Shown piece by piece: positions 5,390 through 27,730 of a stretch of DNA of 27,730 bases (its first letter is position 1; each line of letters begins with the position of its first letter). The position numbers and the translations under genes were made by a program. This DNA comes from a virus, in the UHGV virus genome UHGV-0278671; one strand, given 5' to 3'. The notes under the pieces are model-generated. The model made no database searches, had not been told where the DNA came from, and saw only the letters and a list, made by a program, of their open reading frames with translations.

Positions 5390-5764
5390 TTAAAACAGCG
5401 AACCAAGCAGACCAAGACCAGCACCGATAACCTCATCCAGCAAGTAATCAACATCGCTACGCAGTACGACTATCTTCCCTTCGGCAGTTGTTAACCTGAC
5501 CTCAAGTAGATTTATCGCTTTTGTGTTTGCGGTGATTCTTGCGTCGTGATCAGCCAGTTCGACATCCTGTTCATCGTTTTTCACCTGAGCATCGTAAGCG
5601 CCCTGACCAGCCTGATTTGCCTTCCCGGCAATTGCGCCGACATCAGCCCCCTGATTAATGACATACAGCAGGTAAGACTGGCTGAATATATTGCGTGGCA
5701 AAATTGAAGCATCAAGCCGCGTAGCCTGAACCACAACAGGTGTATTGAGATTCGAATCAGCCAT
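5390..5764 (-). CDS. Tail needle protein (P22 gp26-like), unusually short at 124 aa
   Basis: [73 protein letters not shown] matches the P22 gp26 N-terminus as remembered; start is the internal ATG at 5764 overlapping the gp10 stop. Confidence 0.6.
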
Positions 5765-6754
5765 TACTCGATCCTTATCTGGCAGCCTGACAGAGTGACA
5801 GGTGACTTCGTGATAACGCGCAATCTGAAGCCGACATTTTTCCTGATGCGCCCGACACGCTTCCACAAAACGCGCTTGTCGTAAACGAACGGTTCATTCT
5901 GCTCAATCATCTGCTCACGACCGTAATTGATGCCGTCAGTGGTTGCAGAGAGAAAAAGTCGGTCAGCATACTGCGCAACGCCAGTTGACGATTCAACTTC
6001 AAGGTCGAAAACTCTGGCGTTATCCGCTTTGAACAACGGAGTAAACAGCAGGTGTTCCTGCTGCTTGTCGTACTGGCTGCTGATATCGAACTGCAATTTC
6101 CCGGTAACAGATTCCAGCTTATCGCCGCACGTTATCTGATTGCCTTCGTAAATGAAGTCGATAGCGCGGTACACATCGTCATACAAGCCAGTTTTCAACA
6201 CACACCATTGCGGACCATTGGCGCTTGAAGATGCGTCGTACACGAGGACATGATGCGGAAGGTGGATAATCAGCAACTCATGAGCATCAAATCGCAGAGA
6301 CTCCATCACGCCATCAGCCAGTTCATCAGCAGTGTAGGAGCGGAGGATTTTCTCAATGCTCGCGCTGGCGATTGGTGACACCTGACCGGAGCCGATGATG
6401 TATACAGACGGCGCACCTGTTGCCGGATTGCTGATGAACGCATAAGAATCAGCGAATGGCGTTTTGCAGTACACGACCACTTCCGGCAACATCACCGACT
6501 TCACTTTCTCCTTTGTACAGCTTGCCGCCACACACGCGATAAACAGCACTCTGCGCCATGTTGTACTCAACTCCGCGCGATACGCCGTTCACATCAGAAC
6601 GTTTGGCAATGCCCGGGAATGAGCGAAGATATCCGCTGCTGTTCAGGATTTCTTTGGGTGTAGCCAACATATTCACTGGCAGATAGTCGATATAGTCGGC
6701 GTTTCTAAAGTCTTTGCCGACACCTTTCATAAGCGGAAGTTGCTGAATCGGCAT
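5764..6754 (-). pseudogene. P22 gp10-like tail accessory gene, disrupted by an internal deletion and frameshift
   Basis: 6449..6754 encodes a gp10-like N-terminus (MPIQQLPLMKGVGKDFRNADYIDYLPVNMLATPKE...); 5764..6570 encodes a gp10-like C-terminus from YCKTPFADSYAFISNPATGAPSVYIIGSG in another frame; junction near 6470, about 130 codons missing. Confidence 0.6.
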
Positions 6755-7435: not shown

Positions 7436-8527
7436 TTACTGCCCGGCAATAACGATGCCCGTATATTCAGGAACAAGTACAGAGCAACCGTACAGGGTGG
7501 TGAAACGCGCAGTGGTTACACCTTTGATGTGGTCGAAGGCGTAAGACATGATCAGCGTAGCGCCCTGCTCGGTGGTTGCTGTCATTACCTGTGGACCCTG
7601 ACCAGTCGGGAACGCCAGCTTGCCGTACATCAGTTCAACAGAACCATCAGCCCAGAACAGGTTAGCCGGTGCGGCATTTTTGTTGAGAATGGTGATTGCT
7701 GCGCCACTTGCCGCATTAGCATCAACGTTTGCATATGGTCGGCTGGCGACATCCGCGTTGTCAGGCGGCAGAATTTTCGGTGAGATAGTTACTGTCGTTC
7801 CGCTTACTGCCAGAACGCGGAATACCTGCGGCTGCCCGGTGGTATCTTTGGTGATCTGGTGTACAGAATTCACCCCTGCGATGGTAAACGCATCGCCAAC
7901 CTGCAAACCTTCAGCAGATACCGTAATGGTCCCCTGTCGGTTATCCACTGGCATATCGTTAGCATCTTTGGCTTCAACCTTGTGCGCAGGTGCTGCTGCC
8001 AGCGTAATGGAAGTTGCTATACCCTTCGGAACACGACCAGAAATATCGGTCTTGTAGCTATCGAAGGACGCAACCGGAGGGATTTGCGCTTTTTCGTATG
8101 CTGTCAGGGTTGTGCCCTGAGCATAGGCACGGTGACCAAGCTCGCCAGCAAGGTCTTTGTAGTTGAAGGGGTTCCAGAAAGAGCGACGGTTGATACCCTG
8201 AGGTACACCAATCGCCGTCATGGTGGCATCAATACCTGCCGCACAGTTCCACAAATCACGGCCCTGTGAACCTGTGGTTGAGTCAGCCATCGTGATCACG
8301 TTAGTAGCACGCTGCGTAACCATGGAAATCAGGTCAGAGTCAATCTGTGCAGCAAGGCGCATACCTGCGGCGCGACCAGCTTCAGTTTTATGTTCCGGGT
8401 CACGCATTTCACGCGCATCCAGAGTGTACAGAATGTTTTTCGGCTCCTTGAACACAGAAGGAACAAGGCGCTGAACCAGTGCTGTTGGCGTTTTGCCGCT
8501 GAGGTCTAGGCCTTCCTCAATGTTCAT
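7436..8527 (-). CDS. P22-like major coat protein, probably missing its N-terminal ~50 residues
   Basis: FWNPFNYKDLAGELG, RPYANVDAN and LFWADGSVEL resemble P22 gp5 segments (from memory); the ORF begins where P22 coat residue ~55 aligns. Confidence 0.6.
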   Translation of the reverse strand: MNIEEGLDLSGKTPTALVQRLVPSVFKEPKNILYTLDAREMRDPEHKTEAGRAAGMRLAAQIDSDLISMVTQRATNVITMADSTTGSQGRDLWNCAAGIDATMTAIGVPQGINRRSFWNPFNYKDLAGELGHRAYAQGTTLTAYEKAQIPPVASFDSYKTDISGRVPKGIATSITLAAAPAHKVEAKDANDMPVDNRQGTITVSAEGLQVGDAFTIAGVNSVHQITKDTTGQPQVFRVLAVSGTTVTISPKILPPDNADVASRPYANVDANAASGAAITILNKNAAPANLFWADGSVELMYGKLAFPTGQGPQVMTATTEQGATLIMSYAFDHIKGVTTARFTTLYGCSVLVPEYTGIVIAGQ

Positions 8528-9864
8528 GTGGTAGCGACGTTGCTCGGCATGTTCTCAAGCTGCGACGCACCTGTAATTTGCTGAATAGCCGTTCCGGTGT
8601 ACTGCAATAGCCCAGCAAGAGCAGGAGGCATTTGTGTCGGAGGTGTCCAGCCAGCAACCTGAGCCTCTGAAATGACCGTTCCGTTTTTGTCCTTCTTGCT
8701 GGTCATGGGAAGAACTGCAGGTCTTTTCTTATTCCTCTCTGCCCAGTGATTCATTAATGGACCGGGAATGAAATCAACATCCACGATAGGAATGCCATCG
8801 CCGCCAGCCTGAGTAGCGTTATCTGCAATCATGGAAACCATCAGGTTCTCAAGACGCTGTGCATCCATCGCTTTTGCTGCGTGGCCTTCGATTCGCTCCT
8901 GATTATCAACAAATGAACGACGCCCATATACCGGGATGAGAGGAATATGTTCGCCCGGAATACGCTTCGGTTCTTCCAGCCATTCAGCGCCAGACAGAAG
9001 ACCGCAATAAACTCGGCGTTTCTTCACCGTTCGCTCGCCAATCAGTTCGAATGCACCATCGGTCAGCTCGTCGACAATATCTTTGATTTGCTCTTCATCA
9101 TAGATTGCCGTTTCTCCGCTGACAGGGTTACGCCATGCTGTGAGCTTTACCTTCTCTATGCGGACTTCGTAGTAGCGTCCAACATAGATGGCGTCAGGCG
9201 TTGACCAGTCATACTGAGTACCAGTGTCATCACGAGAAAGGCTTGCCGCGATGGAATCAGGGTATTCAGCCTCGAACGCTTTAGGCGTCATGGAGAACAT
9301 TTCCATAGCCCACATGGCATCAGAGCGGTCATATTGCTTGCTGTCCTGATCGAAGAAGACGCATGTCGCCGGGTCGTAAACAGGAAGAAGGCTGATGCGT
9401 CGCTGCTCGTTACTCGGATCCATTTCATCTTCGTAATCAGCGCACATGCGGAAACAACCGAATCCGCCCGTTACAGCATCATCAAATGCGTTATCACACG
9501 CTTCGCCACCGGATGTTTCCTGATAATCAGCGCGGAATTTGCCGTTCATCTTTTCGGCTAACGCTTCCGATGCCTTGTCATCCTTCGGCCTGAATTTAAC
9601 GCTGATGCGATTCTGTCGATACTCGCCAATGATGCGATCACATTCACGGGCAATCTTATTCAGTTCAAAGCGCGGGTAATGCTCAAACCTGCCTTCATCA
9701 AATGAGTAACCAGCGTTTGTGCTGCCTTCCCACTGTGCGCCGGACACCCGGACGAAACGTTGAGCCTCAATAATCTGCTTACGCATATCCTGCGTTGCTG
9801 ACCAGGCATTATCAAAGTTGCACAGCACCTTGCGATGCCAGTCAGTCATCTTTTTTTCTGCCAT
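8524..9864 (-). CDS. Portal protein (P22 gp1-like), apparently C-terminally truncated (446 aa versus ~700)
   Basis: KKRRVYCGLLSGAEWLEEPKRIPGEHIPLIPVYG matches the P22 portal IKRRRVY...AGEHIPIVPVFG region as remembered; the ORF ends where crown/barrel domains would follow and abuts the coat gene with no scaffold gene between. Confidence 0.6.
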   Translation of the reverse strand: MAEKKMTDWHRKVLCNFDNAWSATQDMRKQIIEAQRFVRVSGAQWEGSTNAGYSFDEGRFEHYPRFELNKIARECDRIIGEYRQNRISVKFRPKDDKASEALAEKMNGKFRADYQETSGGEACDNAFDDAVTGGFGCFRMCADYEDEMDPSNEQRRISLLPVYDPATCVFFDQDSKQYDRSDAMWAMEMFSMTPKAFEAEYPDSIAASLSRDDTGTQYDWSTPDAIYVGRYYEVRIEKVKLTAWRNPVSGETAIYDEEQIKDIVDELTDGAFELIGERTVKKRRVYCGLLSGAEWLEEPKRIPGEHIPLIPVYGRRSFVDNQERIEGHAAKAMDAQRLENLMVSMIADNATQAGGDGIPIVDVDFIPGPLMNHWAERNKKRPAVLPMTSKKDKNGTVISEAQVAGWTPPTQMPPALAGLLQYTGTAIQQITGASQLENMPSNVATT

Positions 9865-9865
9865 A

Positions 9866-10837
9866 TCAACCTACACCACAAGGAATTGAGTAACTGGAAT
9901 AGTCGGGTTGCGCAGCCGACTCCGGGCAATGCATACACATCATCAGCGCATCAGCCAGGTTAGGAGATGGAATACCGAGCTTCTGCTTCATTTCGACCTT
10001 AGTCATAAGCTCCAGCTTCCCGTTGTTATTGAATTTGCGCTGAATCTGCGTCAGTTCTGCAAACAGCTTCTCCAGCATCTTCTCGCCTATCGCTTCTTTG
10101 TCGAAGCTCAGCATGTCGTCTGGGTCTGCATACTCACCGTGGACAACCGCCCGATATGTCAGATACAGCCTGTCAGCCAGCGCGTAATAGAATTGCGCTC
10201 GCTTATTGCGGAACACATCGCCAATAGTGCGAACGTTGTCGCCCTGTACGACTTCATCGGCCCATGCTCCGGCCTGATATGGTGCATCTTCATCGAATGG
10301 CGATTCGCTACCCTTGAACATCGTGGCGGTGATTTTCTTGCCGGAGAACGCTTCCGTTGTCTGTCTGCGCAGCCCTGCACCGACACCATCGCCATCCCAC
10401 AGGTAATGGTCAGCGCCGTCTTCAATCGCCAGCGAAGTTGCCCAGTCAGCACCCTCGTTGATGTCCATCAGCAGACCTTCGGCAATGCGCTTAACTACCG
10501 AACCGTGACGCGATGCATAACCTTTAGCATCTGGCCCTGTATCTGACGGGTCATGTGCAGAGACAACAGCGCCTTTCGCTTTCCATCCGAGTTTCTTGTG
10601 CGCATCGGTTGCGGATTCAAGCCATTCACGTTTGATGATTGCCATATCACTTGCGCTTACTGGATCACCAAGCCAGATGTGACGATACAGTGTCGGATTT
10701 CTACGTTTACACTCTTCCATCTCCAGACGGAGAACTTCAGGAAAGTGCGGGTTCCCGGATCTACGCTCTCCATGAACTTCGCTATTACGCTGCTCATGCG
10801 CTTTTCCAGACGACCTGAATAAACCCATGCGCCCCAC
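9866..10837 (-). pseudogene. Terminase large subunit, C-terminal nuclease-domain fragment; ATPase domain absent
   Basis: Reading from about NPHFPEV... HIWLGDPV... AHDPSDTGPDAKGYA... SPNLADALMMCM looks like a terminase C-terminal domain; no Walker A region; directly upstream of portal. Confidence 0.6.
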
Positions 10838-10902
10838 AGTTCAAGCCAGCCATTCAGCCACTCATGCTGTTCTTTGGTGAGGTTTAGTTCTCTTATGCCC
10901 AC
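10657..10902 (-). pseudogene. Q: N-terminal fragment of a Q-type late antiterminator (WGAW family)
   Basis: First ~47 residues ([47 protein letters not shown]) resemble the Q82/QuuD-family N-terminus (WGAW motif); the remainder looks like read-through and overlaps the terminase fragment. Confidence 0.45.
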
Positions 10903-11564
10903 GCGCCTTCTCCCTGTACCTGAATCAATGTGAGGTTTCCGCAGAACACTGCGCCGGTATCGATATACATCTGGTTGGCAAACTTGAGTGGTTTCACTGC
11001 TGGCGTATGACCAAAGATGAACGTGTCCGCTCCTTTGATTTCTTTCACGATCCCGTCTTGTGAGTTGCTGATTCGTTCGCGGTTCCAGATTACCTGCTGA
11101 TGGTCAACTGGCTTTCCAAATTCGTATTCGTCACAAGGATAATCGGCGTGGCAGATGACATATTTTTTACCTTCGCTCACCAGTTCGATGATTAACGGAA
11201 GTTCATCTGCTTTATGGGAAAGAGCTTTAGCCAGAATTTCTTTGTCGTAATCGAGATTAAAGAACCAGCCACCGCCATTAAACAGCCAGTGATTGACGTT
11301 TCCACGCTCTGATAAGCCATCAATCATCATTTGCTCATGGTTTCCACGTACAGCTCGGAACCAGGGGAATGTGATTAATTCCAGACATTCGACGTTCTCT
11401 GTACCGCGATCGACCAAATCGCCAACCGAGATAAGCAGGTCTTTGTTGGTGTCGAATCCTATCGTCTCCAGTTTTTTCATCAGGTTCGTGTAGCATCCGT
11501 GCAGATCGCCAACTACCCAAATAGTTCGGTATTTGCTGCCATCAATTCTTTCGTAATAGCGCAT
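10893..11564 (-). CDS. ninI: Ser/Thr protein phosphatase (lambda PP / NinI)
   Basis: Near-identical to lambda phosphatase as remembered ([29 protein letters not shown]...GDLVDRG...GNHE...), ending GEGAWA; start is the internal ATG. Confidence 0.9.
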
Positions 11565-11748
11565 CTCTTTCACTCCATCCGCGATGAACCATGAGAACGT
11601 CGTTGACGATGGCGTGCATTTTCCCGTCTTTATCATCAACGTATTTTCTGACCGTACCGCGACTACATTTCAGTCTGCGTGCTACTTCTGTCTGGTTTCC
11701 GTATGCTTCAACGAGCATGTCTGGAATGGTTTTTACTGAGAACGTCAT
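11542..11748 (-). CDS. ninH: NinH
   Basis: 68 aa [37 protein letters not shown]... matches lambda NinH as remembered. Confidence 0.85.
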
Positions 11749-12356
11749 GCGGCCTCACTTCTGCTATTTCGCAGGTCTTTGAGTTTCTGTTGGTACTCTG
11801 CCTTGATCGCCTTGCACTCTTCGATAGTCCAGCGATGGCGGTTATGGTTTGATTCGATTTCGTCTACTGCTTCCTGCCCGATACGGCTAATCAGTTCGAC
11901 GCGATACGGAACGAGATTTCCGCTTTTGTGCTGGTTGCACACCACGCATTGCTTGTGAATATTGCGTTCATCAAATCGGAGTTGAGGTGCCGCAGCAGTT
12001 GTCCGGTAATGTCCGGCATCCCACTGAGCAGACGTGAGCGTTCCGCACGAGATACATGGTAAGTCGCGGTCTCTTTCTCTGATGAAGGCGTTTACGGCTT
12101 GTTGGGCTTGTTTAATCCAGTAACTGCGGGGCTTTAAGGCGAGTTTTCGAATCTTCAGTTTATCTTTCTGTTTCTGCTCCTCTCGTCGTAGTTTCTTCTC
12201 TGCTGCTTTTTCCGCTTTTTCGCGTTCTTTACTTCGTCGTTCGAGTGCTATCTTTGTTCCACACTCTGGAGAGCACCACCACTGATTAGCGAATGCAGGG
12301 TGAAACCATTCCCGACATTCACCGTTTTTACATCGTCTTCGTGCTGGTTTAGCCAT
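11745..12356 (-). CDS. ninG: NinG (Rap) recombination protein
   Basis: 203 aa [33 protein letters not shown]... matches lambda NinG as remembered. Confidence 0.9.
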
Positions 12357-12531
12357 CGTCTTCTTCCTCGTACATTGAGCTATTCGGATCGCTCATCAGT
12401 TCTGCGCAGCAGTGCTCACACACGTGAACTTCCAGCACATGCAGCTTCTGACCGCAGTTAGCGCACGTTAAAGCTCGCTCGACGCTTTCTTTCTGGTATT
12501 GAAGGGATTGGGATGGGCTAAGCATTAACAA
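12349..12531 (-). CDS. ninF: NinF
   Basis: [44 protein letters not shown] matches lambda NinF as remembered. Confidence 0.85.
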
Positions 12532-13465
12532 CCTCCATACAAACTTTCACGAATGCCGTTGCTACTTCTGCATTGATTGCGTTTCCATATCCAATAATTC
12601 GCTGATCTTGATTGCGCTTTGCCATTCTTCCCAGTGTGGACTTGCCTCGTCCCAAGCTTTTGGCAATGCCATTAACCATCGGGAATGAGCCGGGTCTAAC
12701 TGGACGATATTTTTCATCTCTACAGTAAAGCCAGTCTGCATCTCTCCAGAAGCCGTTAACCGGTAATGGGTACATAGCTTCACCGTCCCGGGAAGTTTCA
12801 AGCAGATTCTTGGGGTTCCGCTCTTGTCTTTTCCGCTGTAGCAATGCGTTGAACCTGTTGCATCGTTCGCTAAAGGAGTTTGCCATCCCGCTAGTCTCAC
12901 GCATCCAGATAGGTTCTGAATTCCCCTGCGTGTCTCTGGCTGAAAGTTGATATTTGTCGTTGGAGTAGGCCACCCAATACAATCGCTGCCTGATGTGCGG
13001 AGAACCGAAGCCCGCAGCGCAAATATCGGTACCTGCAGAGGTGTAGTTCGCACCTTCCAAGTCAGTTTGTACAAGGTCGAGCCAAGCGAGGCCGTCTGCG
13101 CTTGCAACCTGTTCGCCAATAACGATGCCAGGATTGCATTTTTCAATAAGCCAGAAGAATGCCGGCCATAAGTGCCGCTCGTCATCAACCCCTTTTCCTT
13201 TGCCTGCCGAGCTGAAAGGTTGGCATGGGCAACTTCCTGTCCAGATACTCTTGTTGTCTGGCCATCCTGCTTTTCTAAGTGCATAGCTCCAAACTCCGAT
13301 TCCTGCAAAAAAGTGGTGCTGGGTAAATCCTCGCAAATCACCTGGTGTGACATCTTCAATACTCCTTTCATCTACATACCGTCTGTCGCTGTTGTATGCA
13401 CTGCTCAGCGGCTTTTTCCACCCACGGTCTGATATTGCTGTACGGTGGGTTATTCCAGATTGCAC
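12518..13465 (-). CDS. DNA (cytosine-5)-methyltransferase-like gene, atypical; true start uncertain
   Basis: Motif I FFAGIG, motif IV GSCPCQPFSSAGK, ENV-like IVIGEQV, motif VIII PHIRQRLYWVAY, motif X-like GYGNAINAEVATAF. Only ~25 residues separate motifs I and IV; the first ~33 codons overlap the Dam fragment; a second long ORF (12562..13371) overlaps in another frame. Confidence 0.55.
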   Translation of the reverse strand: MQSGITHRTAISDRGWKKPLSSAYNSDRRYVDERSIEDVTPGDLRGFTQHHFFAGIGVWSYALRKAGWPDNKSIWTGSCPCQPFSSAGKGKGVDDERHLWPAFFWLIEKCNPGIVIGEQVASADGLAWLDLVQTDLEGANYTSAGTDICAAGFGSPHIRQRLYWVAYSNDKYQLSARDTQGNSEPIWMRETSGMANSFSERCNRFNALLQRKRQERNPKNLLETSRDGEAMYPLPVNGFWRDADWLYCRDEKYRPVRPGSFPMVNGIAKSLGRGKSTLGRMAKRNQDQRIIGYGNAINAEVATAFVKVCMEVVNA

Positions 13466-13652
13466 CGTGGCTTATCCACTCAGAATTTAGCGCGTCGTCG
13501 GCCTCAGTTAACCAGTGAGCGCACAGAGCATTTTTGTCGCTCGCTGCCGAATCCAGCCAGAATCCAAACTCAATATCCAGTGCATCAAAAAGCCAAAGCG
13601 GCGTTTGCCAGCAGTCCTTGTCGTGTGCTGGCGTATTTGATTTGATAGTCAT
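13368..13652 (-). pseudogene. Phage Dam-type N6-adenine methyltransferase, N-terminal fragment
   Basis: DKDCWQTPLWLFDALDIEFGFWLDSAAS...WNNPPYS matches the phage Dam family pattern; the ORF stops ~25 codons after NPPY; ATG overlaps the ninB stop (ATGA). Confidence 0.55.
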
Positions 13653-14089
13653 GCAGCCCGATCTCCCCATCTCGCTTTCCACTCCAGAGCCAGTCTCGCT
13701 TCGTCTGACCACTTAACGCCACGCTCTGTACCGAATGCCTGTATAAGCTCTAATAGCTCCGCAAATTCGCTTACACGCATCCTGCTGGTTGACTGGCCTA
13801 TTACCACAAAGCCATTCCCGGCAAGGTTAGGAACAACGTCCTGCTGCTTTAATGCTGCGGTAAACACACACTTCCAGCTTTCTGCATCCAGCCAACGCCC
13901 ATGCCATTCAACCTGACGAGAGACGTCACCAAGGCAAGCCCAAAGCTTTCGATTCTGGTCTAAGCTGCGGTTGCGCTCCTGAATGATCACTACGATTGGC
14001 TTGGTTGGGTCTGGAAGGATTTGCTGTACCGCGTGAATAGCGTTTTGCTGATGTGCCGGAGATCGAATTTCAAAGGTTAGTTTTTTCAT
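13649..14089 (-). CDS. ninB: NinB recombination protein
   Basis: 146 aa from the internal ATG (MKKLTFEIRSPAHQQNAIHAVQQILPDPTKPIVV...), near-identical to lambda NinB as remembered. Confidence 0.9.
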   Translation of the reverse strand: MKKLTFEIRSPAHQQNAIHAVQQILPDPTKPIVVIIQERNRSLDQNRKLWACLGDVSRQVEWHGRWLDAESWKCVFTAALKQQDVVPNLAGNGFVVIGQSTSRMRVSEFAELLELIQAFGTERGVKWSDEARLALEWKARWGDRAA

Positions 14090-14166
14090 GACTTCCCTCT
14101 CCCCCAAATAAAAAGGCCTGCGATTACCAGCAGGCCTGTTACAAGCTCAGTGATGTAGATGGTCAT

Positions 14167-16047
14167 TTAATACTCCGTCACGTTTTCCTGTCGCCACGCC
14201 TCGTCATATTCCGATTTCGGCATATTGGCGATGTAGCTATAAGGCGATCCTGATTCAAGTTGCAGGAACTGGTGCGATTGCTCGTCAAGGAACAACGGGA
14301 CACCACCTTCCCAACCTTCGCCGTTACGTTGTTTTTCAAGCATCAAAACAGATGCCGGAGATGCCAGTAGCTGTTCGTCCTTCTCTGACATCTTTTCACC
14401 ACTCTGAACTCTCTGTAACGCTCTCTCGCGAGCCTTGTTACGCCAGATGATAAAAAGGTTGTCTGTCAGGTCTGTTATCGCTCCAGAGCCTTTTACGTCC
14501 ATTTTCCCGGTTGGTTTTTCTTCGCTATCTCCTTTTCTGGAGTGAGTAACGAGAATGACGTGGGAGTTTGTTTTGTTTTTGAAGTCACAAATCGAGTCAA
14601 CAAATGCTTTCTGCCCGTTATAGTCATCGTCACCTATGCCGCATTTCATCAGGCTGTCGATGATGAATAACTGGATGCCGTATCGGCGGCGAGCGTAGTC
14701 GAATATTTCGATCAGCCTGTCGGCTTTCGCCGTTCCAGTCAGGCCAAACACCCAAAGTCTTTCGTCATAAAATTTAAATGCAGAGTCAATTTCCAGCACT
14801 GGCGGCATCTTGCAGCACGTCGCCTGACGGGTAAGGCGCTTAAGGAGAATACCAGGCTTCAGCTCAAGTGACGCGATGCACGTCTTCACACCCTGACGCA
14901 TTGCCTCAAGTGCCATATGCCCGACAACCTCCGTTTTTCCGTGACCGTTCACACCATTGACCAGCGTCAACTCGGCCTCACGAAACTGGAATTTATCTGC
15001 CAGAGATTCCCACGGTGGATTAAACAGATACTGCTGCTTGCCGTAGAAAGCGTTGATAGTGTCCTGGTAAAACTCTCGCGCGCTGTAGAGTTCTTCAGGA
15101 TCAAAGTAGGATGCCGTGCCGATGTACTGCCAGATTTCATCCTCGGTAACACCGTTCATCAGGCATTCGTTGATGTCTTTGTACGGCAGAGTAACAAGAC
15201 GGCAACGATGTTCACCGAGTCGGCTTGCGATTTCCCTTGCGGCTTCACGACCAACATCATCAACGTCCATCGAGATGAATATTTCCTCAAACCTGTCGAG
15301 GTTGTGGTACTCAAACTCAATCCACTGTTGCTTAGCGCCTTTCCCTCCACCAAACGGCACGGATAACGCCGAGATGCCGTATTGCGCATAGCTCATACAA
15401 TCAATTTCGCCTTCGCAAAGTACAACCGCCCTCACGCCAGCGTCCAGAGCCTGCCATCCGAACAGACAAGGTTCGCAATCACCTTCTGCCATAATGACTT
15501 TCTTCCCGTCCGGGCGCTCAGTGCTGATTCGCTTGACCTGCAACAACTCACCATCGCGTTTGTACGGAAGCACCAGTGCATCAAGTTCTCGTTCTCCATT
15601 CCACACCTTGCCGCTGACAACCTCGTAGCGCTTTACGACTTCTGGCGATATGCCACGCGATTGCAGGTACTCAAGATGGGATTCTGTTCTGGTAACGTAG
15701 CGGGCGATTTTCTTGCGATCAGGTCTGGAGAATTTTTTCTCACGTTTGGCATCGAAATGGTGATCGTCATCCTTGATACCGAGAAATGCTTTCGCTTCCT
15801 GCATAGCCTGATGCAGGTTAATTCCACGACATGCCATCCACAAATCAAGCATGTCACCGCCGTCTCCCTCAGCGAAATCAGCCCATTTTTTCTTGCCGCT
15901 AAGGTTGACCTTAAGGCTGTTTCCCTTGTCACCATTGACGTTACCGGCAACCCACTCATGCCCCTCTTTCTTGCCGTTTGGCAACAGGTGCGGAGCCACC
16001 CTGTCAACCTGCGCCCAAAGCAGGTCGCTAAGTTCACTTGGCGTCAT
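14167..16047 (-). CDS. Bifunctional DNA primase/helicase
   Basis: 626 aa; Toprim-like acidic motifs (VVLCEGEIDCMS, ISMDVDDVG) followed by Walker A GVNGHGKT and Walker B-like LFIIDSLMK; directly downstream of the initiator gene. Confidence 0.8.
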   Translation of the reverse strand: MTPSELSDLLWAQVDRVAPHLLPNGKKEGHEWVAGNVNGDKGNSLKVNLSGKKKWADFAEGDGGDMLDLWMACRGINLHQAMQEAKAFLGIKDDDHHFDAKREKKFSRPDRKKIARYVTRTESHLEYLQSRGISPEVVKRYEVVSGKVWNGERELDALVLPYKRDGELLQVKRISTERPDGKKVIMAEGDCEPCLFGWQALDAGVRAVVLCEGEIDCMSYAQYGISALSVPFGGGKGAKQQWIEFEYHNLDRFEEIFISMDVDDVGREAAREIASRLGEHRCRLVTLPYKDINECLMNGVTEDEIWQYIGTASYFDPEELYSAREFYQDTINAFYGKQQYLFNPPWESLADKFQFREAELTLVNGVNGHGKTEVVGHMALEAMRQGVKTCIASLELKPGILLKRLTRQATCCKMPPVLEIDSAFKFYDERLWVFGLTGTAKADRLIEIFDYARRRYGIQLFIIDSLMKCGIGDDDYNGQKAFVDSICDFKNKTNSHVILVTHSRKGDSEEKPTGKMDVKGSGAITDLTDNLFIIWRNKARERALQRVQSGEKMSEKDEQLLASPASVLMLEKQRNGEGWEGGVPLFLDEQSHQFLQLESGSPYSYIANMPKSEYDEAWRQENVTEY

Positions 16048-16154
16048 GATTCCCTCAGATTGAGATTTTTAAACCAGAAATCGACAAACGAAATACTTAA
16101 CCAGCCGTGGTTATAACCAGCAACCAGTAGCGATTTGATTTTTGATTTCATGGT

Positions 16155-17015
16155 TCACCTGTCGAAAAACACGTAGCCAGTTTTCGATACGGTGATTGCG
16201 GATGATGGTTTGGATTGTGGTTGAATAGTTTCTGGCTTCTCGTCGTTCCAGCGTTGACCGTTCAGGTAGCTCGATGGTAACAACCTGTCGAATCCGAACT
16301 GCTTACCATTCCTGCATGCGATGTCTTCTGCCAGCATCGTGGCAAACTCGCTTGCCGTACCCCTGGTAGTTTTACGCCATTCCCTGAACTGTGTTCTGAA
16401 TGCCGAAGCTGCGTTTTTCTTCCCGGCTTTCCGCATGCCTGCACACCAGAATATTTCCTCGAATGCCTTGTCGGTTTCTTCGTGACGGTCATGTGATTTT
16501 TCACACTCCGTCCGAACACTTTCGGACATAGTGTTTTTATTATTTCTTTTTTCTTTTGTAATAGTTTCTTTTGTGTGTCCCTGTTTTGGTGACAGCGCTG
16601 TCACCGTTTTGGTGACACTTTTTGTCACCAATGCAGTGACATTATCACCAGAGTAGTGACACCCTTCGATTTGCCATTCTTCGATGTTCTTGTTAGGCCC
16701 GATTTGCTGGCCTTCGCGAAGGATAACCTTCATCGCGATAAGCTCATTCTTGGCCTTGTTTACCTTCTGTCTTGGCAGCCTGGTAATTTGAGCTAACTGA
16801 CTATCAGAAATGCGATCCATCTTTTTACCGTAGCCGTATGTTTTACGGCATATGGCGTGGGCAACCTTGCTCTGATTTTTCGTTAAATCTGCGCCGATAA
16901 GCTCTTCATACAGGGCATTTGCAAGACGGGTATAACCATCTTCAACTTCTGCCACACGACGCTCCACAGGCCGTTGTGAAGGCCTTAAATGTGTTACGGT
17001 TGCAAGATTACTCAT
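16155..17015 (-). CDS. Replication initiator (lambda O-like) with the origin inside the gene
   Basis: Position after cII; AAGGAG Shine-Dalgarno; the iteron array is translated in frame as a repetitive [18 protein letters not shown] linker. Confidence 0.75.
16524..16664 (-). repeat. Replication origin: four iterons plus adjacent AT-rich tract
   Basis: Iterons with GGTGACA/TGTCACC inverted cores at 16584-16605, 16606-16630, 16631-16650 and 16651-16664; AT-rich tract 16524-16580. Confidence 0.7.
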
Positions 17016-17166
17016 GACCTTTCTCCTTCTGCATCAGCTTCACTTTTTCCAACTCAGCCCGGAATCGACCAGGCTGCTTGAAGCTGGACAGGAAGCGATC
17101 ACGTAGTATGTGTTTGTGAATTTTGTCCTGGTAAGGACTGAGTTGTTTTGTCATAATGACTCCTGT

Positions 17167-17241
17167 GGATTGATCCAGTAATGACCTCAGAATTCCATCT
17201 GGATTTGTTCAGAACGCTCGGTTGCCTCCGGGCGTTTTTTA
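17167..17241 (+). ncRNA. oop: oop antisense RNA overlapping the cII 3' end
   Basis: Plus strand gattgatccagtaatgacctcagaattccatctggatttgttcagaacgctcggttgcctccgggcgtttttt closely matches lambda oop as remembered; CATAAT -10 at 17152-17157; hairpin plus T6 terminator. Confidence 0.6.
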
Positions 17242-17480
17242 TTGGTGAGAATCGAAGCAACTTGTCGTGCCAATCGAGCCATATCGTCGTCGACGACGCC
17301 CCATTCAAGAACAGCAAGCAGCATTGAGAACTTTGGAATCCAATCCCTCTTCCACCTGCTGATCTGCGACTTATCAACTCCCACAGCTTCCGCTGTCTTC
17401 TCAGTTCCAAGCATTGCGATTTTGTTAAGCAACGCACTCTCGATTCTTAGAGCCTCGTTGCGTTTGTTTGCACGAACCAT
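17187..17480 (-). CDS. cII: CII transcriptional activator
   Basis: 97 aa [51 protein letters not shown]... essentially lambda CII; lambda-like leader taaggaaatacttacatATG; the ORF-track N-terminal extension is not used. Confidence 0.9.
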
Positions 17481-17538
17481 ATGTAAGTATTTCCTTAACA
17501 AATAAGAAGTTATGCGCATCAACTTATGCGCGTTGTAT

Positions 17539-17582
17539 TCCCGCATTTCGGCGGGAATGAGGACCATGACTGTTAAAGAGCG
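17539..17582 (-). promoter_or_regulatory. nutR: boxA CGCTCTTTAACA plus boxB hairpin
   Basis: On the minus strand between cro and cII: boxA cgctctttaaca (17571-17582) and boxB tcccgccgaaatgcggga (17539-17556), identical to the nutL copy. Confidence 0.6.
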
Positions 17583-17588
17583 GTGTTA

Positions 17589-17783
17589 CTATTTGTTTTT
17601 CTTGTTGCTTGGGAAAGGACGAACTTCCTCTCCAATCACACTGCCATCAGGCTTTACCGTAACCATGATGTTACGGCCTGCCAGAATGGCCTTGCTGATA
17701 GCGCACTGGATTACACCAAAGTCACTGGCTGCTTTAGCCTGTCCATGGATTTTGGCGTAATCGGCAAGTGTCATTCGAATCAT
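17589..17783 (-). CDS. cro: Cro repressor
   Basis: 64 aa [62 protein letters not shown] aligns with lambda Cro; GGAG 7 nt before ATG 17783. Confidence 0.85.
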
Positions 17784-17812
17784 ATGCACTCTCCGTTATT
17801 AACCATGAACAA

Positions 17813-17883
17813 AGAATACTACAGGTATTCAAAGCAATCAATACTCAGGGTATTTTTAGTTTAAGTACCTTAGCTATTAGAAT
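17813..17883. promoter_or_regulatory. OR operator region with divergent pR and pRM
   Basis: Operators AATACtacagGTATT (17815-17829), AATACtcaggGTATT (17840-17854), degenerate AGTACcttagCTATT (17864-17878). pR on minus: -35 TTGATT 17836-17841, -10 TATTCT 17813-17818. pRM on plus: -10 TAGAAT 17878-17883, ending ~7 nt before the cI ATG (near-leaderless). Confidence 0.6.
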
Positions 17884-17889
17884 TAAGCT

Positions 17890-18606
17890 ATGGAAAATAA
17901 AAAATCACTGACGACAGAACAGCTCGAAGACGCTAAGCGGCTTAAGGCTTTGTATGAGTCAAAAAAGAAAGAATTGGGGATAACCCAATACTCAATCGCT
18001 GATGAACTGGGTATCACCCAAGGAGCGGTAGGGCATTATCTTAATGGCAGAAACGCGCTAAACGTTGAGGTTGCATCTGGTTTTGCACGACTGTTGCAAG
18101 TCTCAATTGCTGATTTTAGCCAGTCAATTGCTGCCAAGGTTGCAGAACAGGCAGAAAGCCTTAAGAGCGATGCCAACGTAAGGTATGCAGGGGAATACAG
18201 AGCAGGAAAGAGGTATCCGGTGTTAAGCAGTATCCAGGCTGGCTCGTGGTGTGAAGCATGCGAACCATACACCATTAAAGACATAGATGTTTGGCTTGAG
18301 TCTGACGCGCATATTCAAGGTAATGCGTTCTGGCTTAAAGTGGAAGGTGATTCAATGACGGCACCGGTTGGGTTAAGCATTCCAGAGGGAACATTCGTTC
18401 TTTTCGATACCGGAAGGGAGGCGATCAACGGCAGCTTGGTCATAGCAAAACTTTCTGACTCTAACGAAGCAACATTCAAGAAGCTGATAATCGACGGCGG
18501 AAATAAATACCTTAAGGGACTTAATCCTGCATGGCCTCTCGTGCCAATCAATGGAAACTGCAAGATTATAGGCGTTGCAATTGAGACAAAACTAAGGCTG
18601 GTTTGA
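17890..18606 (+). CDS. cI: CI repressor (HTH plus LexA-like self-cleaving C-terminal domain)
   Basis: N-terminus LTTEQLEDAKRLKALYESKKKELGITQ and HTH; C-terminal FWLKVEGDSMTAP...FKKLI matches lambda CI FWLEVEGNSMTAP...FKKLI (catalytic Ser/Lys context). Confidence 0.9.
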   Translation: MENKKSLTTEQLEDAKRLKALYESKKKELGITQYSIADELGITQGAVGHYLNGRNALNVEVASGFARLLQVSIADFSQSIAAKVAEQAESLKSDANVRYAGEYRAGKRYPVLSSIQAGSWCEACEPYTIKDIDVWLESDAHIQGNAFWLKVEGDSMTAPVGLSIPEGTFVLFDTGREAINGSLVIAKLSDSNEATFKKLIIDGGNKYLKGLNPAWPLVPINGNCKIIGVAIETKLRLV

Positions 18607-18623
18607 TCACGCAAGGGGCGATT

Positions 18624-18992
18624 ATGGTTGGAACCGCTATAGCAAGCTTTTTTGGGATGTTGGCAATCTCGACAATTTACGGCTTAGCGCATGCTTTTAT
18701 TGCGAAATCTCTATCAGAAAAAATAAGCCAGGCTTGGGCGCATAGATCAGCTCGTTTCATGATTCTAGTGATCATAGCAATACAAGGGATATCTGCATTT
18801 ATCCTCTATGGTTCAAGCTTATACCTGTTGTATCAAGGCGCGACATTTACGCCTTACACCAGTGATTACGGAACTCTATACGATGGTAGTGAAGACATCT
18901 CTATGGCTTGGATTGTCTTTGGTTTATCTATGGCCGTGTCTGTTGTAGCAGATATCATTAAGGTAATTCTCGTCTTAACCTTCGCTGACTAA
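18624..18992 (+). CDS. Polytopic inner-membrane protein co-transcribed with cI (rexB/sieB position)
   Basis: AAGGGG 6 nt before ATG 18624, 18 nt after the cI stop; about four hydrophobic helices in 122 aa; no similarity to lambda RexB recognised. Confidence 0.55.
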   Translation: MVGTAIASFFGMLAISTIYGLAHAFIAKSLSEKISQAWAHRSARFMILVIIAIQGISAFILYGSSLYLLYQGATFTPYTSDYGTLYDGSEDISMAWIVFGLSMAVSVVADIIKVILVLTFAD

Positions 18993-19123
18993 CCTATAAT
19001 CCCGGCAGCAATAGCTATCGGGATCCACTTCACATATCCCGCATAAAAAGCACTGAACAAGCAGACACCGAAAAAATAAATATCCTTTGTATTCATTTAC
19101 TTATCATTATTTCATCAAAAATA

Positions 19124-19165
19124 AATACCTTGGGTATTTACACAATAAAATACCTACAGTATTCT
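19124..19165 (+). promoter_or_regulatory. OL operators overlapping pL
   Basis: Perfect operators AATACcttggGTATT (19124-19138) and AATACctacaGTATT (19149-19163); -35 TTTACA 19137-19142, 17-nt spacer, -10 TATTCT 19160-19165. Confidence 0.6.
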
Positions 19166-19211
19166 TTAGCCATCAGCAGGACGCTGGTAGCCAAACGGAA
19201 CATATTGGCAG

Positions 19212-19252
19212 GCTCTTTAACATTGATGGGATTGTCCCGCCGAAATGCGGGA
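19212..19252 (+). promoter_or_regulatory. nutL: boxA GCTCTTTAACA plus boxB hairpin
   Basis: boxA 19212-19222 matches the rrn-type boxA consensus; boxB tcccgccgaaatgcggga 19235-19252 (5-bp stem CCCGC/GCGGG), identical to nutR. Confidence 0.6.
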
Positions 19253-19359
19253 ACCAAAGAGTAGTTGGCTTTGGGGTGACGTGAAGTGCAGCTGCACGAC
19301 GGCAACCGGAAGATAAGCACCCGGCGCGTCACCTCCAAAGTCAATCATCGGAGATCAAC

Positions 19360-19632
19360 ATGACAGTAGTCATTACATATCTGGCTGACGATAACACCAG
19401 AAATCGCCGCAGAGCACGCAGACAGGCTCAACGTGAACAGGCAATGCAAGAGCAGCGACTGGCGCGAAAAATTGCGCTAAAGCTCTCTGGTTGCGTCAGA
19501 GCAGACAAAGCAGCATCACTCGGAAGCCTTCGCTGCAAGAAGGCAGATGAATGCAGTGGAAGTATTTGCCTGCCAGAAGTTGCGCTTTTCGCAGCTGGTC
19601 ATCGTACAAGTAAGCAGGTTACAGCGAGGTAA
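19360..19632 (+). CDS. N: N-type antitermination protein
   Basis: Arginine-rich motif NTRNRRRARRQAQREQ near the N-terminus; C-terminus LPEVALFAAGHRTSKQVTAR resembles P22 gp24 as remembered; first gene after pL/nutL. Confidence 0.75.
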   Translation: MTVVITYLADDNTRNRRRARRQAQREQAMQEQRLARKIALKLSGCVRADKAASLGSLRCKKADECSGSICLPEVALFAAGHRTSKQVTAR

Positions 19633-19635
19633 GTG

Positions 19636-19860
19636 ATGAATCAGACATACATTCCATCATGCTTGAGAAATCTGCCAAAGCAGAAAGCAAAGCCCCGCAA
19701 GCAAGCCATAAAGGACGCTAAGGCAGAGGTTATTGATCAAGCAATACAATTGCTCAGGGAGGAGTTAAGAAGTGGCAAGCTCGAAGGAATGATGATGCCC
19801 TATCAGCGCGGATATCTATCGGCGATTAGTAAGTTGGAAGTATTGAAGAGTGAATTATGA
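19636..19860 (+). CDS. Hypothetical protein (74 aa)
   Basis: Starts immediately after the N stop; GAGG 7 nt before ATG 19636. Confidence 0.4.
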   Translation: MNQTYIPSCLRNLPKQKAKPRKQAIKDAKAEVIDQAIQLLREELRSGKLEGMMMPYQRGYLSAISKLEVLKSEL

Positions 19861-20393: not shown

Positions 20394-20626
20394 GACGCAT
20401 AGTCGGCCTTTATTTTTGGCATAAACAACAGAATAAATACTGCACTGTGTATTCATTCCAACGAGTGAATACACGGAGCAATGTCGCTCGTAACTAAACA
20501 GGAGCCGACTTGTTCTGATTATTGGAAATCTTCTTTGCCCTCCAGTGTGAGGGCTTTTTTATATGCATACCAATAACGCTTCACTCGAGGCGTTTTCGTT
20601 ATGCAATCAAACAGAAGGAGCATCCT

Positions 20627-20797
20627 ATGCAACAGTTCGCTATTGCAGGGGCGGCATCGGTTCGCCCTTTCAACCCGATTTTATCGGTACAGCATTCACG
20701 AAAAAACATTCTAACCGGAGCAGACTTTAAACAACCAAGAATGAAAAGTTTGCTCGAAAAGCTTTGGGATATTTTGAAACAACAAGGCCGCCCATGA
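20627..20797 (+). CDS. cIII: CIII-like protein (FtsH inhibitor)
   Basis: 56 aa MQQFAIAGAAS...LLEKLWDILKQQGRP resembles lambda CIII (MQYAIAGWPVAG...WKRLIDILNQPG); AAGGAG 6 nt before the ATG. Confidence 0.65.
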   Translation: MQQFAIAGAASVRPFNPILSVQHSRKNILTGADFKQPRMKSLLEKLWDILKQQGRP

Positions 20798-23599: not shown

Positions 23600-23767
23600 A
23601 TGAGAGGACTTGCATACAATCCCGGCATTCTTCCGGCAGAAATGATTATTCGCCAACGCGTAAAGCCAATGCCATCGAGAGAGGAATTGCTTAAGAGAAA
23701 TAGTTTCGGTTCTGTTAATGACAACAAATATCTGAATGCAATGTGGCGCAAAGGAGGCAAGCAGTGA
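23600..23767 (+). CDS. Small hypothetical protein (55 aa)
   Basis: GAGGA 8 nt before ATG 23600; stop overlaps the next gene's GTG start. Confidence 0.3.
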
Positions 23768-26275: not shown

Positions 26276-26338
26276 TTTATTTATTCATATATGAAAACAA
26301 TGTAACCAATATTCGAATTGAAGAACTGAAAGAACACC

Positions 26339-26364
26339 AAGCCGCCTGATGGCGGTTTCTTTTT
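26339..26364 (+). terminator. Candidate Rho-independent terminator at the end of the early-left operon
   Basis: GCCGCC-TGAT-GGCGG hairpin followed by TTTCTTTTT. Confidence 0.4.
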
Positions 26365-26379
26365 GCCTGGAGAATTAAG

Positions 26380-26571
26380 ATGACCGATACCAGCCTGATT
26401 CCTGAGAAAGAAGTGATGAACAAGCTCGGTGTTTCATCACGTCAGACAATCTGGAACTATACCAAACGGCACGGATTTCCGAAGCCAGTCAGAACCCACC
26501 CCAAATCATACCTTCGTGAAGCTGTTGAGGGGTGGATTCTTAACGGTGGCGTTAATCAGAAATGCTCCTGA
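26380..26571 (+). CDS. alpA: AlpA-family regulator/excisionase
   Basis: 63 aa with HTH KEVMNKLGVSSRQTIWNYTKRHGFPKP typical of the AlpA/Xis family; GGAG before the ATG. Confidence 0.65.
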   Translation: MTDTSLIPEKEVMNKLGVSSRQTIWNYTKRHGFPKPVRTHPKSYLREAVEGWILNGGVNQKCS

Positions 26572-27730
26572 TGTGCCAGAACAATTTATCAGCGTGAAGC
26601 TCATACGCTTTGCGCTGAGCCTCTATCCAGTCGTGTTTATTGTATACGGACATTATCCCGCCAAGTTCATGACCGAGCATTCGCTCAGTAACATGAGGCT
26701 CGACATTCATCTCGGACAGACGTGTAACAAGCGTTCTTCTGAAATCGTGTGTTCGCCAGTAACCTAGATCCATCCCTCCCCTTATTCTATTTACGAATCG
26801 GTTGGCTGCAGCGATGCTGATCGGTTTGTTTATGTCTTCTCCAGGGAAAAGAACATCATTGTACGTTGTCATGGCCTTTTCGAGGAAAGGCTTAATTTGT
26901 TCGAAGATTGGACGGCGGATAACATTACCCATCTTGCTATGCTCTTTCGGTACGGTCCATACGTTTTCCAGCAGGTCAAATTCTGTCTTTTTTGCCAGCC
27001 TAAGCTCTGAGAGCCTCGCCCCCCACAGCATAAGCATCTGATGAAGTAGCTTATTTGACGTAGACGCACGGCTTCTTTCAATAGCAAGCCAAATCTTAGC
27101 CAGTTCGTGATACGACAGTACCCGATCCCCTACCTCAGCGCGGGAGCCGAAGTCCCTTGGTTGGATGCTCATAATTGCGCAACTATCTATCAACTGACGC
27201 CGCATGCACCAACTTATTGCTGATCTTAGTTGACTTAGCACCTGCCTTGCTCGGCGTGGATTATCTTTTTCTTCTTCGGTAAGCAGGTCAACCCATTGCT
27301 TAACCGTGATAGAAGATGCCGGACGATTAGGAAAGGCGTCATGCATGCGCTTCATAACCGTTGATCGGTAAAGTGCCTGGGTCTTTTCTCTGAGAGTTGT
27401 AGAGACGTAGTTGTCGAACCAGTAGTCGAGACACTGGGCGACCGTCATGGAGTTCTCCACCTTCTCTTCAAAATAAGTGCGTGGATCCGTTCCTGAGAAA
27501 TAGAGCTTTCGCAAGTCAGCAGTGATCTGTCTGGCATCCTTCAAAGACAGGGATGGGTATCGACCAAGCCCAAGTCGATTAGGCTTGCCATGCCAGCGAT
27601 AGCGGTACTGGAACTGGATGACCCCCTTCGGTGAAATTCGTACGCTGAGGCCATCGGCATCAGCCACTTCTTGTGGGCCCGAATATGGTTTACCATAAAT
27701 AGTACGCAGTTTTGTGTCGCTTATAGCCAT
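26552..27730 (-). CDS. int: Tyrosine-type site-specific integrase (P4-like arm-binding N-terminus)
   Basis: 392 aa; N-terminal LRTIYGKPYSGPQEVADADGLSVRISPKGVIQFQYRYRWHGK; C-terminal catalytic residues in HDFRRT...LGHE...YNKHDW; start codon is the last three bases of the window. Confidence 0.9.
   Translation of the reverse strand: MAISDTKLRTIYGKPYSGPQEVADADGLSVRISPKGVIQFQYRYRWHGKPNRLGLGRYPSLSLKDARQITADLRKLYFSGTDPRTYFEEKVENSMTVAQCLDYWFDNYVSTTLREKTQALYRSTVMKRMHDAFPNRPASSITVKQWVDLLTEEEKDNPRRARQVLSQLRSAISWCMRRQLIDSCAIMSIQPRDFGSRAEVGDRVLSYHELAKIWLAIERSRASTSNKLLHQMLMLWGARLSELRLAKKTEFDLLENVWTVPKEHSKMGNVIRRPIFEQIKPFLEKAMTTYNDVLFPGEDINKPISIAAANRFVNRIRGGMDLGYWRTHDFRRTLVTRLSEMNVEPHVTERMLGHELGGIMSVYNKHDWIEAQRKAYELHADKLFWHIRSISD

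Follow-up and report, generated by a model that had tools for sequence, protein, structure and literature searches.

A lambda-type cII/pRE/oop block between HK620-type immunity and Sf101-type replication genes in a P22-like prophage

How a cII/oop cassette close to that of phage lambda came to lie in an immunity region that is not lambda's was the question raised by UHGV virus genome UHGV-0278671, a stretch of 27,730 nucleotides (nt) analyzed here in full (the window). The cassette contains the gene for the transcriptional activator CII, its target promoter pRE, and the antisense RNA oop, which together form the module with which a lambda-family prophage ordinarily establishes lysogeny. The block carries a lambda-type allele and not a lambda-identical one, and the window itself is a P22-like (Lederbergvirus-type) lambdoid prophage. 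The sequence comparisons argue strongly that this module of a P22-like prophage holds a lambda-type allele, most likely placed there by homologous exchange within two short linkers at its ends, a reading considered very probable as a whole.

The whole 27.7-kb window was searched against the lambda reference (NC_001416) by BLAST (megablast and blastn) and pairwise alignment. Minus-strand positions 17144-17497 corresponded to lambda 38697-38343 with 96.3% identity over 355 columns (E 5e-167, megablast), and 17147-17497 aligned with 12 mismatches in 351 ungapped positions (96.6%, blastn). The first-pass annotation had described cII and oop as nearly identical to lambda, and this was borne out by the nucleotide comparison of 17100-17500 (96.3-96.6%, high rather than low identity), by the CII protein, and by oop. 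The wording "lambda-identical" in its title was too strong given the 12 base differences and the closer alleles of 434, HK633, and many prophages. That annotation began the cassette at 17167, a position that falls within it but 2 nt inside the oop equivalent, which starts at 17165. The elements of the block are as follows:

17144-17497, minus strand: lambda-type cII/pRE/oop block, homologous to lambda 38343-38697 (E ~1e-166)
17187-17480, minus strand: cII, encoding a 97-aa transcriptional activator (translation, Pfam, and lambda comparison)
17165-17241, plus strand: equivalent of the oop antisense RNA, 77 nt, homologous to lambda 38675-38599
17211-17238, plus strand: oop intrinsic terminator, a hairpin with an 11-pair stem including 6 GC pairs, and a T run (TTATTGG)
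17149-17157, plus strand: pO extended -10 element TGTCATAAT, 7 nt upstream of the oop 5' end and identical in lambda
17458-17471, plus strand: predicted CII binding site TTGCGTTTGTTTGC, straddling the pRE -35 and lying within cII codons 4-8
17485-17497, plus strand: pRE from its -10 AAGTAT (17485-17490, same as in lambda) to the inferred start at 17497

Pairwise alignment placed the beginning of lambda identity sharply at TAAGGAAATACTTACATATGG, 17 nt 5' of the cII ATG, and its other end 8-12 nt inside lambda O. At these edges 17/17 and 19/21 columns matched inside the block, compared with 43/103 and 39/104 outside, and the flanks on both sides held no detectable lambda DNA similarity adjoining the block. 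In total, BLAST identified ~2.8 kb of lambda-like DNA in the window (10%). The block and lambda 38343-38697 agreed in gene order, overlaps, CII box, pRE -10, cII ribosome site, pO extended -10, and the oop hairpins and terminator, but were unrelated at the pO -35, in all that lies upstream of pRE +1 (tR1, nutR, and cro), and in all that follows the first 8-12 nt of O.

The CII protein matched lambda CII at 95 of 97 residues (97.9% over 97 aa), and the coding differences from lambda comprised eight synonymous and two non-synonymous changes (A76S and A85E). Profile searches assigned it to Pfam PF05269 Phage_CII (162.7 bits with a cut-off of 21.3, covering profile positions 1-91 of 91) and to phrog_191 (E 6e-42). 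In agreement with a CII-family activator, a TTGCN6TTGC site was found around the pRE -35, with the promoter pointing to cI (plus strand, 17890). The cII coding sequence matched those of 434 (290/294), HK633 (289/294), Louie (288/294), and lambda (284/294), compared with only 140-166 of 294 nt for the cII genes of the mEp235 and Sf101 types. At codon 76 it was lambda that differed from the other compared alleles. The exact CII protein, including E85, was indexed in 535 blocks of public assemblies, and A85E was thus rejected as a change private to the window. The donor was therefore not phage lambda itself, and the allele circulates widely in Escherichia coli prophages.

The oop equivalent was identical to lambda oop at 73 of 77 bases and to the corresponding HK633 sequence at 76 of 77, and the HK633 record annotates an oop-like feature. 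Its predicted fold contained two hairpins as in lambda oop (-27.4 kcal/mol, z -3.6), and its antisense overlap with cII covered the last 55 nt of the gene (17187-17241). The codon change behind A85E, at 17227, affects the loop of the terminator hairpin, and the stem stays intact. At pO, the -10 element pattern TGnCATAAT was kept. The CII box was the same as in lambda and is annotated as a cII site or pRE in 434, HK633, and mEp213, and the annotated pRE of HK620 mapped to window 17457-17496. The pRE start point was placed at 17497, the last lambda-like base, because AAGTAT lies 13 nt downstream of the CII box; this corresponds to lambda 38343, which we take to be the lambda pRE start point. In lambda, the antisense RNA to cII, OOP, is 77 nt long and self-terminating (PMC3349717). 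Phage 434 oop has three base changes, and lambda-imm21 has five in the cII/oop overlap, yet lambda OOP still silences its cII (PMC3349717). As those five changes do not prevent silencing, the four oop changes here should be tolerated.

From its near-identity to the lambda system, the module would be expected to work as follows. The cII gene would be transcribed from pR, after cro and nutR, and CII would bind TTGCGTTTGTTTGC inside its own first codons to activate pRE. Firing in the opposite direction, pRE would yield a transcript that crosses cro in antisense and continues into the HK620-type cI, giving both cI message and an anti-cro RNA. The oop RNA would be made from pO, end at its own terminator, and pair with the last 55 nt of the cII mRNA, resulting in less CII. 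Because cII, pRE, and oop overlap physically, these three elements can be inherited only as one block.

The neighbors of this block on the immunity side were of HK620 type (Clark et al., 2001; AF335538). Window 17498-19575 aligned with HK620 without gaps at 98.7% DNA identity, and the HK620 annotation mapped tR1, nutR, cro, OR1-3, cI, hkaS, OL, nutL, and N onto it. The features of this side that bear on the block are:

17498-17581, minus strand: HK620-type tR1/nutR segment of 84 bp, with boxA CGCTCTTTAACA and hairpins, not lambda-like
17589-17783, minus strand: cro, 64 aa, a diverged member of the lambda-Cro fold family (PF09048, 91.3 bits; 98.7% DNA identity to HK620)
17814-17879: HK620-type operators OR1-OR3 (such as GAATACTACAGGTATTC), positioned through the HK620 annotation
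17890-18606, plus strand: HK620-type cI repressor, 238 aa (HTH_3 and Peptidase_S24)
19360-19632, plus strand: N antiterminator, 90 aa, similar to those of HK620 and phage 21 (PF25694)

The window does not carry lambda immunity (imm-lambda), as cI, Cro, N, the operators, and the nutR boxA/boxB all differ. The first-pass annotation had also called cI, cro, N, and the operators different from lambda, which was correct for all four with the nuance that cI and Cro are diverged homologues and not unrelated proteins. The cI repressor shared 43% protein identity with lambda CI, and Cro shared 63% with lambda Cro, its gene holding only a faint 71% DNA patch to lambda; no significant protein similarity was found between N and lambda N. 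Directly downstream of cI, where lambda has rexA/rexB, lies an hkaS-like open reading frame (ORF) of 129 aa (phrog_6534, 18603-18992).

On the other side, the block adjoined a replication module with a non-lambda initiator allele:

17008-17154, minus strand: small DUF2740 ORF (hkaW-like; profile match), the first gene of the replication module
16155-17015, minus strand: O-like replication initiator, 286 aa, non-lambda allele (PF04492)

This module also includes a 626-aa primase/helicase. The O-like initiator shared 49% identity with lambda O over the N-terminal 161 aa, and positions 17040-17143 were identical to Sf101, mEp235, and 720R6 at 104 of 104 bases.

The two joints of the block fell in short stretches shared among phages that otherwise differ:

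17478-17497: left linker CATATGTAAGTATTTCCTTA, 20 bp, common to the lambda-type and HK620-type parents
17146-17178: right linker TTTTGTCATAATGACTCCTGTGGATTGATCCAG, 33 bp, common to differing cII types and replication modules

A four-way alignment showed the left linker to be identical in the window, HK620, lambda, and CUS-3; beyond it, the window tracked lambda on the cII side and HK620 on the nutR side. Database matches to HK620-type records ran from 17478 onward and those to lambda-type records up to 17497, and since both parental types share that stretch, the left crossover must fall in 17478-17497. This linker contains pRE from the -10 to +1, the cII ribosome site, and the cII ATG. The right linker was nearly invariant in lambda, HK620, Sf101, mEp235, mEp213, HK633, and seven prophages, spanning phages with lambda-type and P22-c1-type cII and three kinds of downstream replication gene. 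It contains the pO extended -10, the ribosome site and ATG of the next gene, and the first 14 nt of oop. The part of the block unique between the linkers is 17179-17477. Abrupt ends, incongruent neighbors, and shared sequence at the joints, as found here, are the marks of a linker-bounded mosaic module, and the sharp joints from modular recombination proposed in the first-pass annotation were upheld by the drop from ~97% identity to background within a few bases and by these incongruent neighbors.

Modular exchange is shown directly by the neighborhoods of the exact CII protein, eight loci of which were sampled out of the 535 assembly blocks, because the same CII stood beside at least five immunity types. 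Across these loci, the neighbors of the identical CII comprised at least five combinations of cI and cro, two types of nutR, and two kinds of replication module. The nutR types were lambda-type and HK620-type, each meeting cII in the one 20-bp linker, and the two replication modules were both joined at the 33-bp linker. The arrangement of window 16000-19000 was present at ≥99% in 13 of 5426 complete E. coli genomes. The 84-bp nutR segment (17498-17581), common to HK620, CUS-3, JEP4, Gally, and prophages with other cro types, was found next to lambda-type cII in prophages with three different cro types. This segment of tR1 and nutR acts as a small module in itself, bounded by boxA and the linker with the cII ribosome site.

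Isolated phages contained each joint separately. HK620 matched the window in N, nutL, OL, hkaS, cI, OR, cro, nutR, tR1, the hkaW/DUF2740 gene after cII, and both linkers, but its own cII is a 92-aa P22-c1-like gene with another oop body between the linkers, where the window has the lambda-type block. The left joint, at which the 20-bp linker connects lambda-type cII with HK620-type tR1/nutR, was shared with the P22-like coliphages HF4s, CUS-3, JEP4, and Gally, which diverged downstream at or near the cII stop (match starting at 17191). HF4s also shared cro (100% coverage at 99.3%), whereas CUS-3, JEP4, and Gally had other cro and cI genes. The right joint, with lambda-type cII followed by DUF2740, the O-like gene, and the primase/helicase, was present in the Lederbergvirus vB_EcoP-720R6 (query fully covered, 97.5%), which differed in having a lambda-type nutR and another immunity region. 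The Lederbergvirus Sf101 had the same replication module with a different, P22-c1-like cII. In 434, HK633, 720R6, Louie, and mEp213, lambda-type sequence runs on through tR1 and nutR because lambda-type nut sites are used, whereas the window joint stands at pRE +1 because this phage has a different, non-lambda N/nut system.

Laboratory hybrids such as lambda imm434, lambda imm21, and lambda(18,12)P22 provide experimental evidence that the modules for immunity, cII/oop, and replication still function after recombination at these places (PMC3349717). Phage 434 has retained a lambda-type cII/oop in which oop differs at three bases, and the segment cI-pR-cro-cII-oop persists in the lambda/P22 replication hybrid (PMC3349717). 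These hybrids differ from the window in being laboratory constructs, and the lambda-like sequence of the 434 type reaches through nutR to cro, whereas the window joint lies at pRE +1. The early regions of P22-like phages are highly mosaic and include some lambda-identical genes (PMC2629481).

Homologous exchange within the shared linkers between co-resident lambdoid phages or prophages would be the most likely history of the locus. Such exchange would have set the lambda-type cII/oop between the HK620-type immunity and nut region and the DUF2740/O-like/primase-helicase module, and the lambda-type nin blocks described below may have been assembled in the same way at gene boundaries. Formation of the joints by linker exchange is favored in accordance with the boundary-sequence model (Susskind and Botstein, 1978; Clark et al., 2001; summarized in PMC3029335). 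The strongest competing explanation is illegitimate recombination at random positions, with selection keeping the harmless joints (Hendrix/Juhala) and the linkers conserved for their promoters, ribosome sites, and starts. For the majority of mosaic joints in phages this explanation has wide acceptance (PMC3029335), and as both linkers are dense in regulatory signals, selection alone could keep them constant. Joints internal to genes also exist: the cII of mEp213 is a hybrid, its 5' 180 nt being lambda-type (99% to the window) and its 3' part of the Sf101/P22-c1 type, with the joint near window 17299 (mEp213 locus ~1201-1382), so that exchange can also happen within cII and not solely at the linkers. 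Against illegitimate recombination, both joints lie inside stretches of 20 and 33 bp identical in the presumed parents, as homologous exchange predicts, and the same two joints recur with many partners. It is therefore considered possible but rather unlikely here.

The remaining explanations fared much worse. Recent direct acquisition from phage lambda would agree with the 96.3-96.6% identity and the other lambda-like blocks in the window, but it was judged very unlikely since the 434, HK633, and Louie alleles are closer, lambda stands alone among the compared alleles at codon 76, this exact protein recurs across many E. coli assemblies, and the 2.6-4.4% divergence from lambda of all the lambda-like blocks looks like variation at the level of the gene pool. 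Vertical descent without exchange, in which a doubly constrained cII/oop evolved slowly while its flanks diverged beyond recognition, could draw on the multiple constraints on this region (protein, antisense RNA, and internal promoter) and on the eight synonymous changes among ten coding differences from lambda. It is even less probable, as HK620 shares the immunity flank at 98.7% identity but has a cII of another type, the exact CII stands beside at least five immunity types, identity drops to background within a few bases and not gradually, and synonymous sites in the block are also ~97% conserved overall. An assembly chimera can be practically dismissed: a junction of Q with the terminase gene at 10753/10754 was absent from the 5426 complete E. 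coli genomes and had no exact match in the GTDB representative genomes, but the whole 16000-19000 arrangement was present at ≥99% in 13 independent complete genomes, the left joint occurs in isolated phages, and the odd junctions in the late region, which have no connection with the cII cassette, represent clean deletions when compared with Sf101.

Several observations weigh against placement of a working lambda-type module by linker exchange. Rfam gave no match for oop, either in the whole window at gathering thresholds or in 17050-17650 at E up to 1; as Rfam appears to have no oop family, the oop assignment draws solely on lambda homology. The lambda pO -35 (TTGAGT) is outside the homologous block, and the window has TGGTAA there, a match at 3/6 positions. 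A consensus sigma-70 promoter scan of 16900-18000 returned no sites and hence no positive support, a silence to be expected of an activator-dependent pRE and an extended -10 pO. The other CII-dependent promoters of lambda (pI and paQ) were not found in the window, which holds a truncated Q and does not extend to the sequence upstream of int; any CII-dependent int promoter would lie outside it because the int ATG is at the last base of the window. Regulatory function alone may account for the conservation of the linkers, their location at the joints being no proof that crossing-over happened there, and given the late-gene deletions described below the module may have no further biological importance in its host. 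The placement of the lambda-type allele by homologous exchange in the linkers nevertheless stays the preferred reading. It can tentatively be extended, at somewhat less than even likelihood, to linkers that serve as repeatedly used short-homology recombination substrates, which would make cII/oop and the 84-bp nutR segment true cassettes, and to an early region retained under selection despite the clean late-gene deletions.

Further TTGC repeats in the window were attributed to chance. TTGCN6TTGC occurred at three sites (2.45 expected by chance) and TTGYN6TTGY at four (6.8 expected), and the sites at 19687-19700 and 23738-23751 (minus strand) were rejected as CII promoters in having no credible -10 at the pRE spacing.

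The nin region contained two further lambda-like blocks:

10900-12491, minus strand: lambda-type ninF (from codon 10)-ninG-ninH-ninI, 97.4% to lambda 42297-43888
13649-14166, minus strand: lambda-type ninA/ninB block from the helicase-gene stop to the ninB stop, 95.6% to lambda 40567-41084

Protein identities to lambda were 98.6% for ninB, 88.7% for ninF, 98.5% for ninG, 100% for ninH, and 94.1% for ninI. The nin joints fall at gene boundaries, namely at the stop codons of the primase/helicase gene and ninB and, in ninF and Q, 28 and 3 nt from the start, respectively. The lambda-like nin genes expected across 10890-14090 were thus present in these two blocks (97.4 and 95.6%), but the intervening 12492-13648 was not lambda-like and has methyltransferase ORFs in place of lambda ninC-E. 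Positions 12518-13712 hold 114-aa and 269-aa ORFs, with an overlapping 315-aa ORF, matching different DNA methyltransferase families, and may represent two methylases or one disrupted gene.

Smaller lambda-like patches were identified elsewhere. Positions 20399-20565 were 96.5% identical to the ea10-ral intergenic region (lambda 34087-33920), followed by a weaker patch (79-83%) at 20565-20650, just upstream of cIII and including its first ~20 nt. CIII modulates the turnover of CII-family activators by FtsH, and a diverged cIII-like ORF (MQQFAIAG...) lies at 20624-20797; a cIII at 20563-20730 was rejected as being in the wrong frame. Positions 26302-26369 were 95.6% identical to a 68-bp lambda stretch just upstream of xis (29165-29098). 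The integrase gene (26552-27730, minus strand) encodes 392 aa with Arm-DNA-binding and Phage_integrase domains and is transcribed toward the early-left operon without being part of it. A tRNA scan of the window returned none. Within the O-like gene an origin-like array was observed (16543-16661), with four 19-20-bp iterons at 16576-16594, 16599-16617, 16623-16641, and 16643-16661, each internally palindromic (TGTCACC-N5-GGTGACA) and different from the lambda iterons. The AT-rich stretch beside them (16543-16588) was 93.5% identical to the AT-rich part of the lambda ori (lambda 39152-39107).

The closest overall relatives of the window were Sf101, Huey, 720R6, Sf6, and HK620, with Sf101 the best (53% of the window covered at 97.2%). 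The early region was intact, and the late region was damaged in several places. Q (10657-10902) matched its family over the first ~50 codons only and at 10753/10754 runs directly into the large terminase gene (9866-10837), which it joins midway, at approximately codon 176 of the Sf101 gene. Owing to this fusion, the prophage lacks the remainder of Q, the lysis genes, the small terminase gene, and the 5' part of the large one. Approximately 2 kb of Sf101 sequence (portal 3' part, scaffold, and coat 5' part) is deleted at window ~8500-8560, between portal (8524-9864) and coat (7436-8527), the junction lying at 2-4 bp of microhomology (...GTCGCTAC / CACATGAAC...). The head-closure (5764-6570) and tail-needle (5390-5866) ORFs matched only parts of their profiles. 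These late-gene deletions make the prophage look defective.

The cII/pRE/oop circuit, lambdoid mosaicism, the occurrence of lambda-identical genes in P22-like phages (PMC2629481), and the left joint are already known. The locus is useful for correct prophage annotation and illustrates the boundary-sequence model; beyond this its importance is small, and it opens no new question. It provides a clean worked example of lambdoid mosaicism, in which HK620-type immunity, lambda-type cII/pRE/oop, Sf101-type replication, and lambda-type nin genes stand side by side, and the prophage is predicted to be hetero-immune to lambda while carrying a lambda-like lysogeny-establishment switch.

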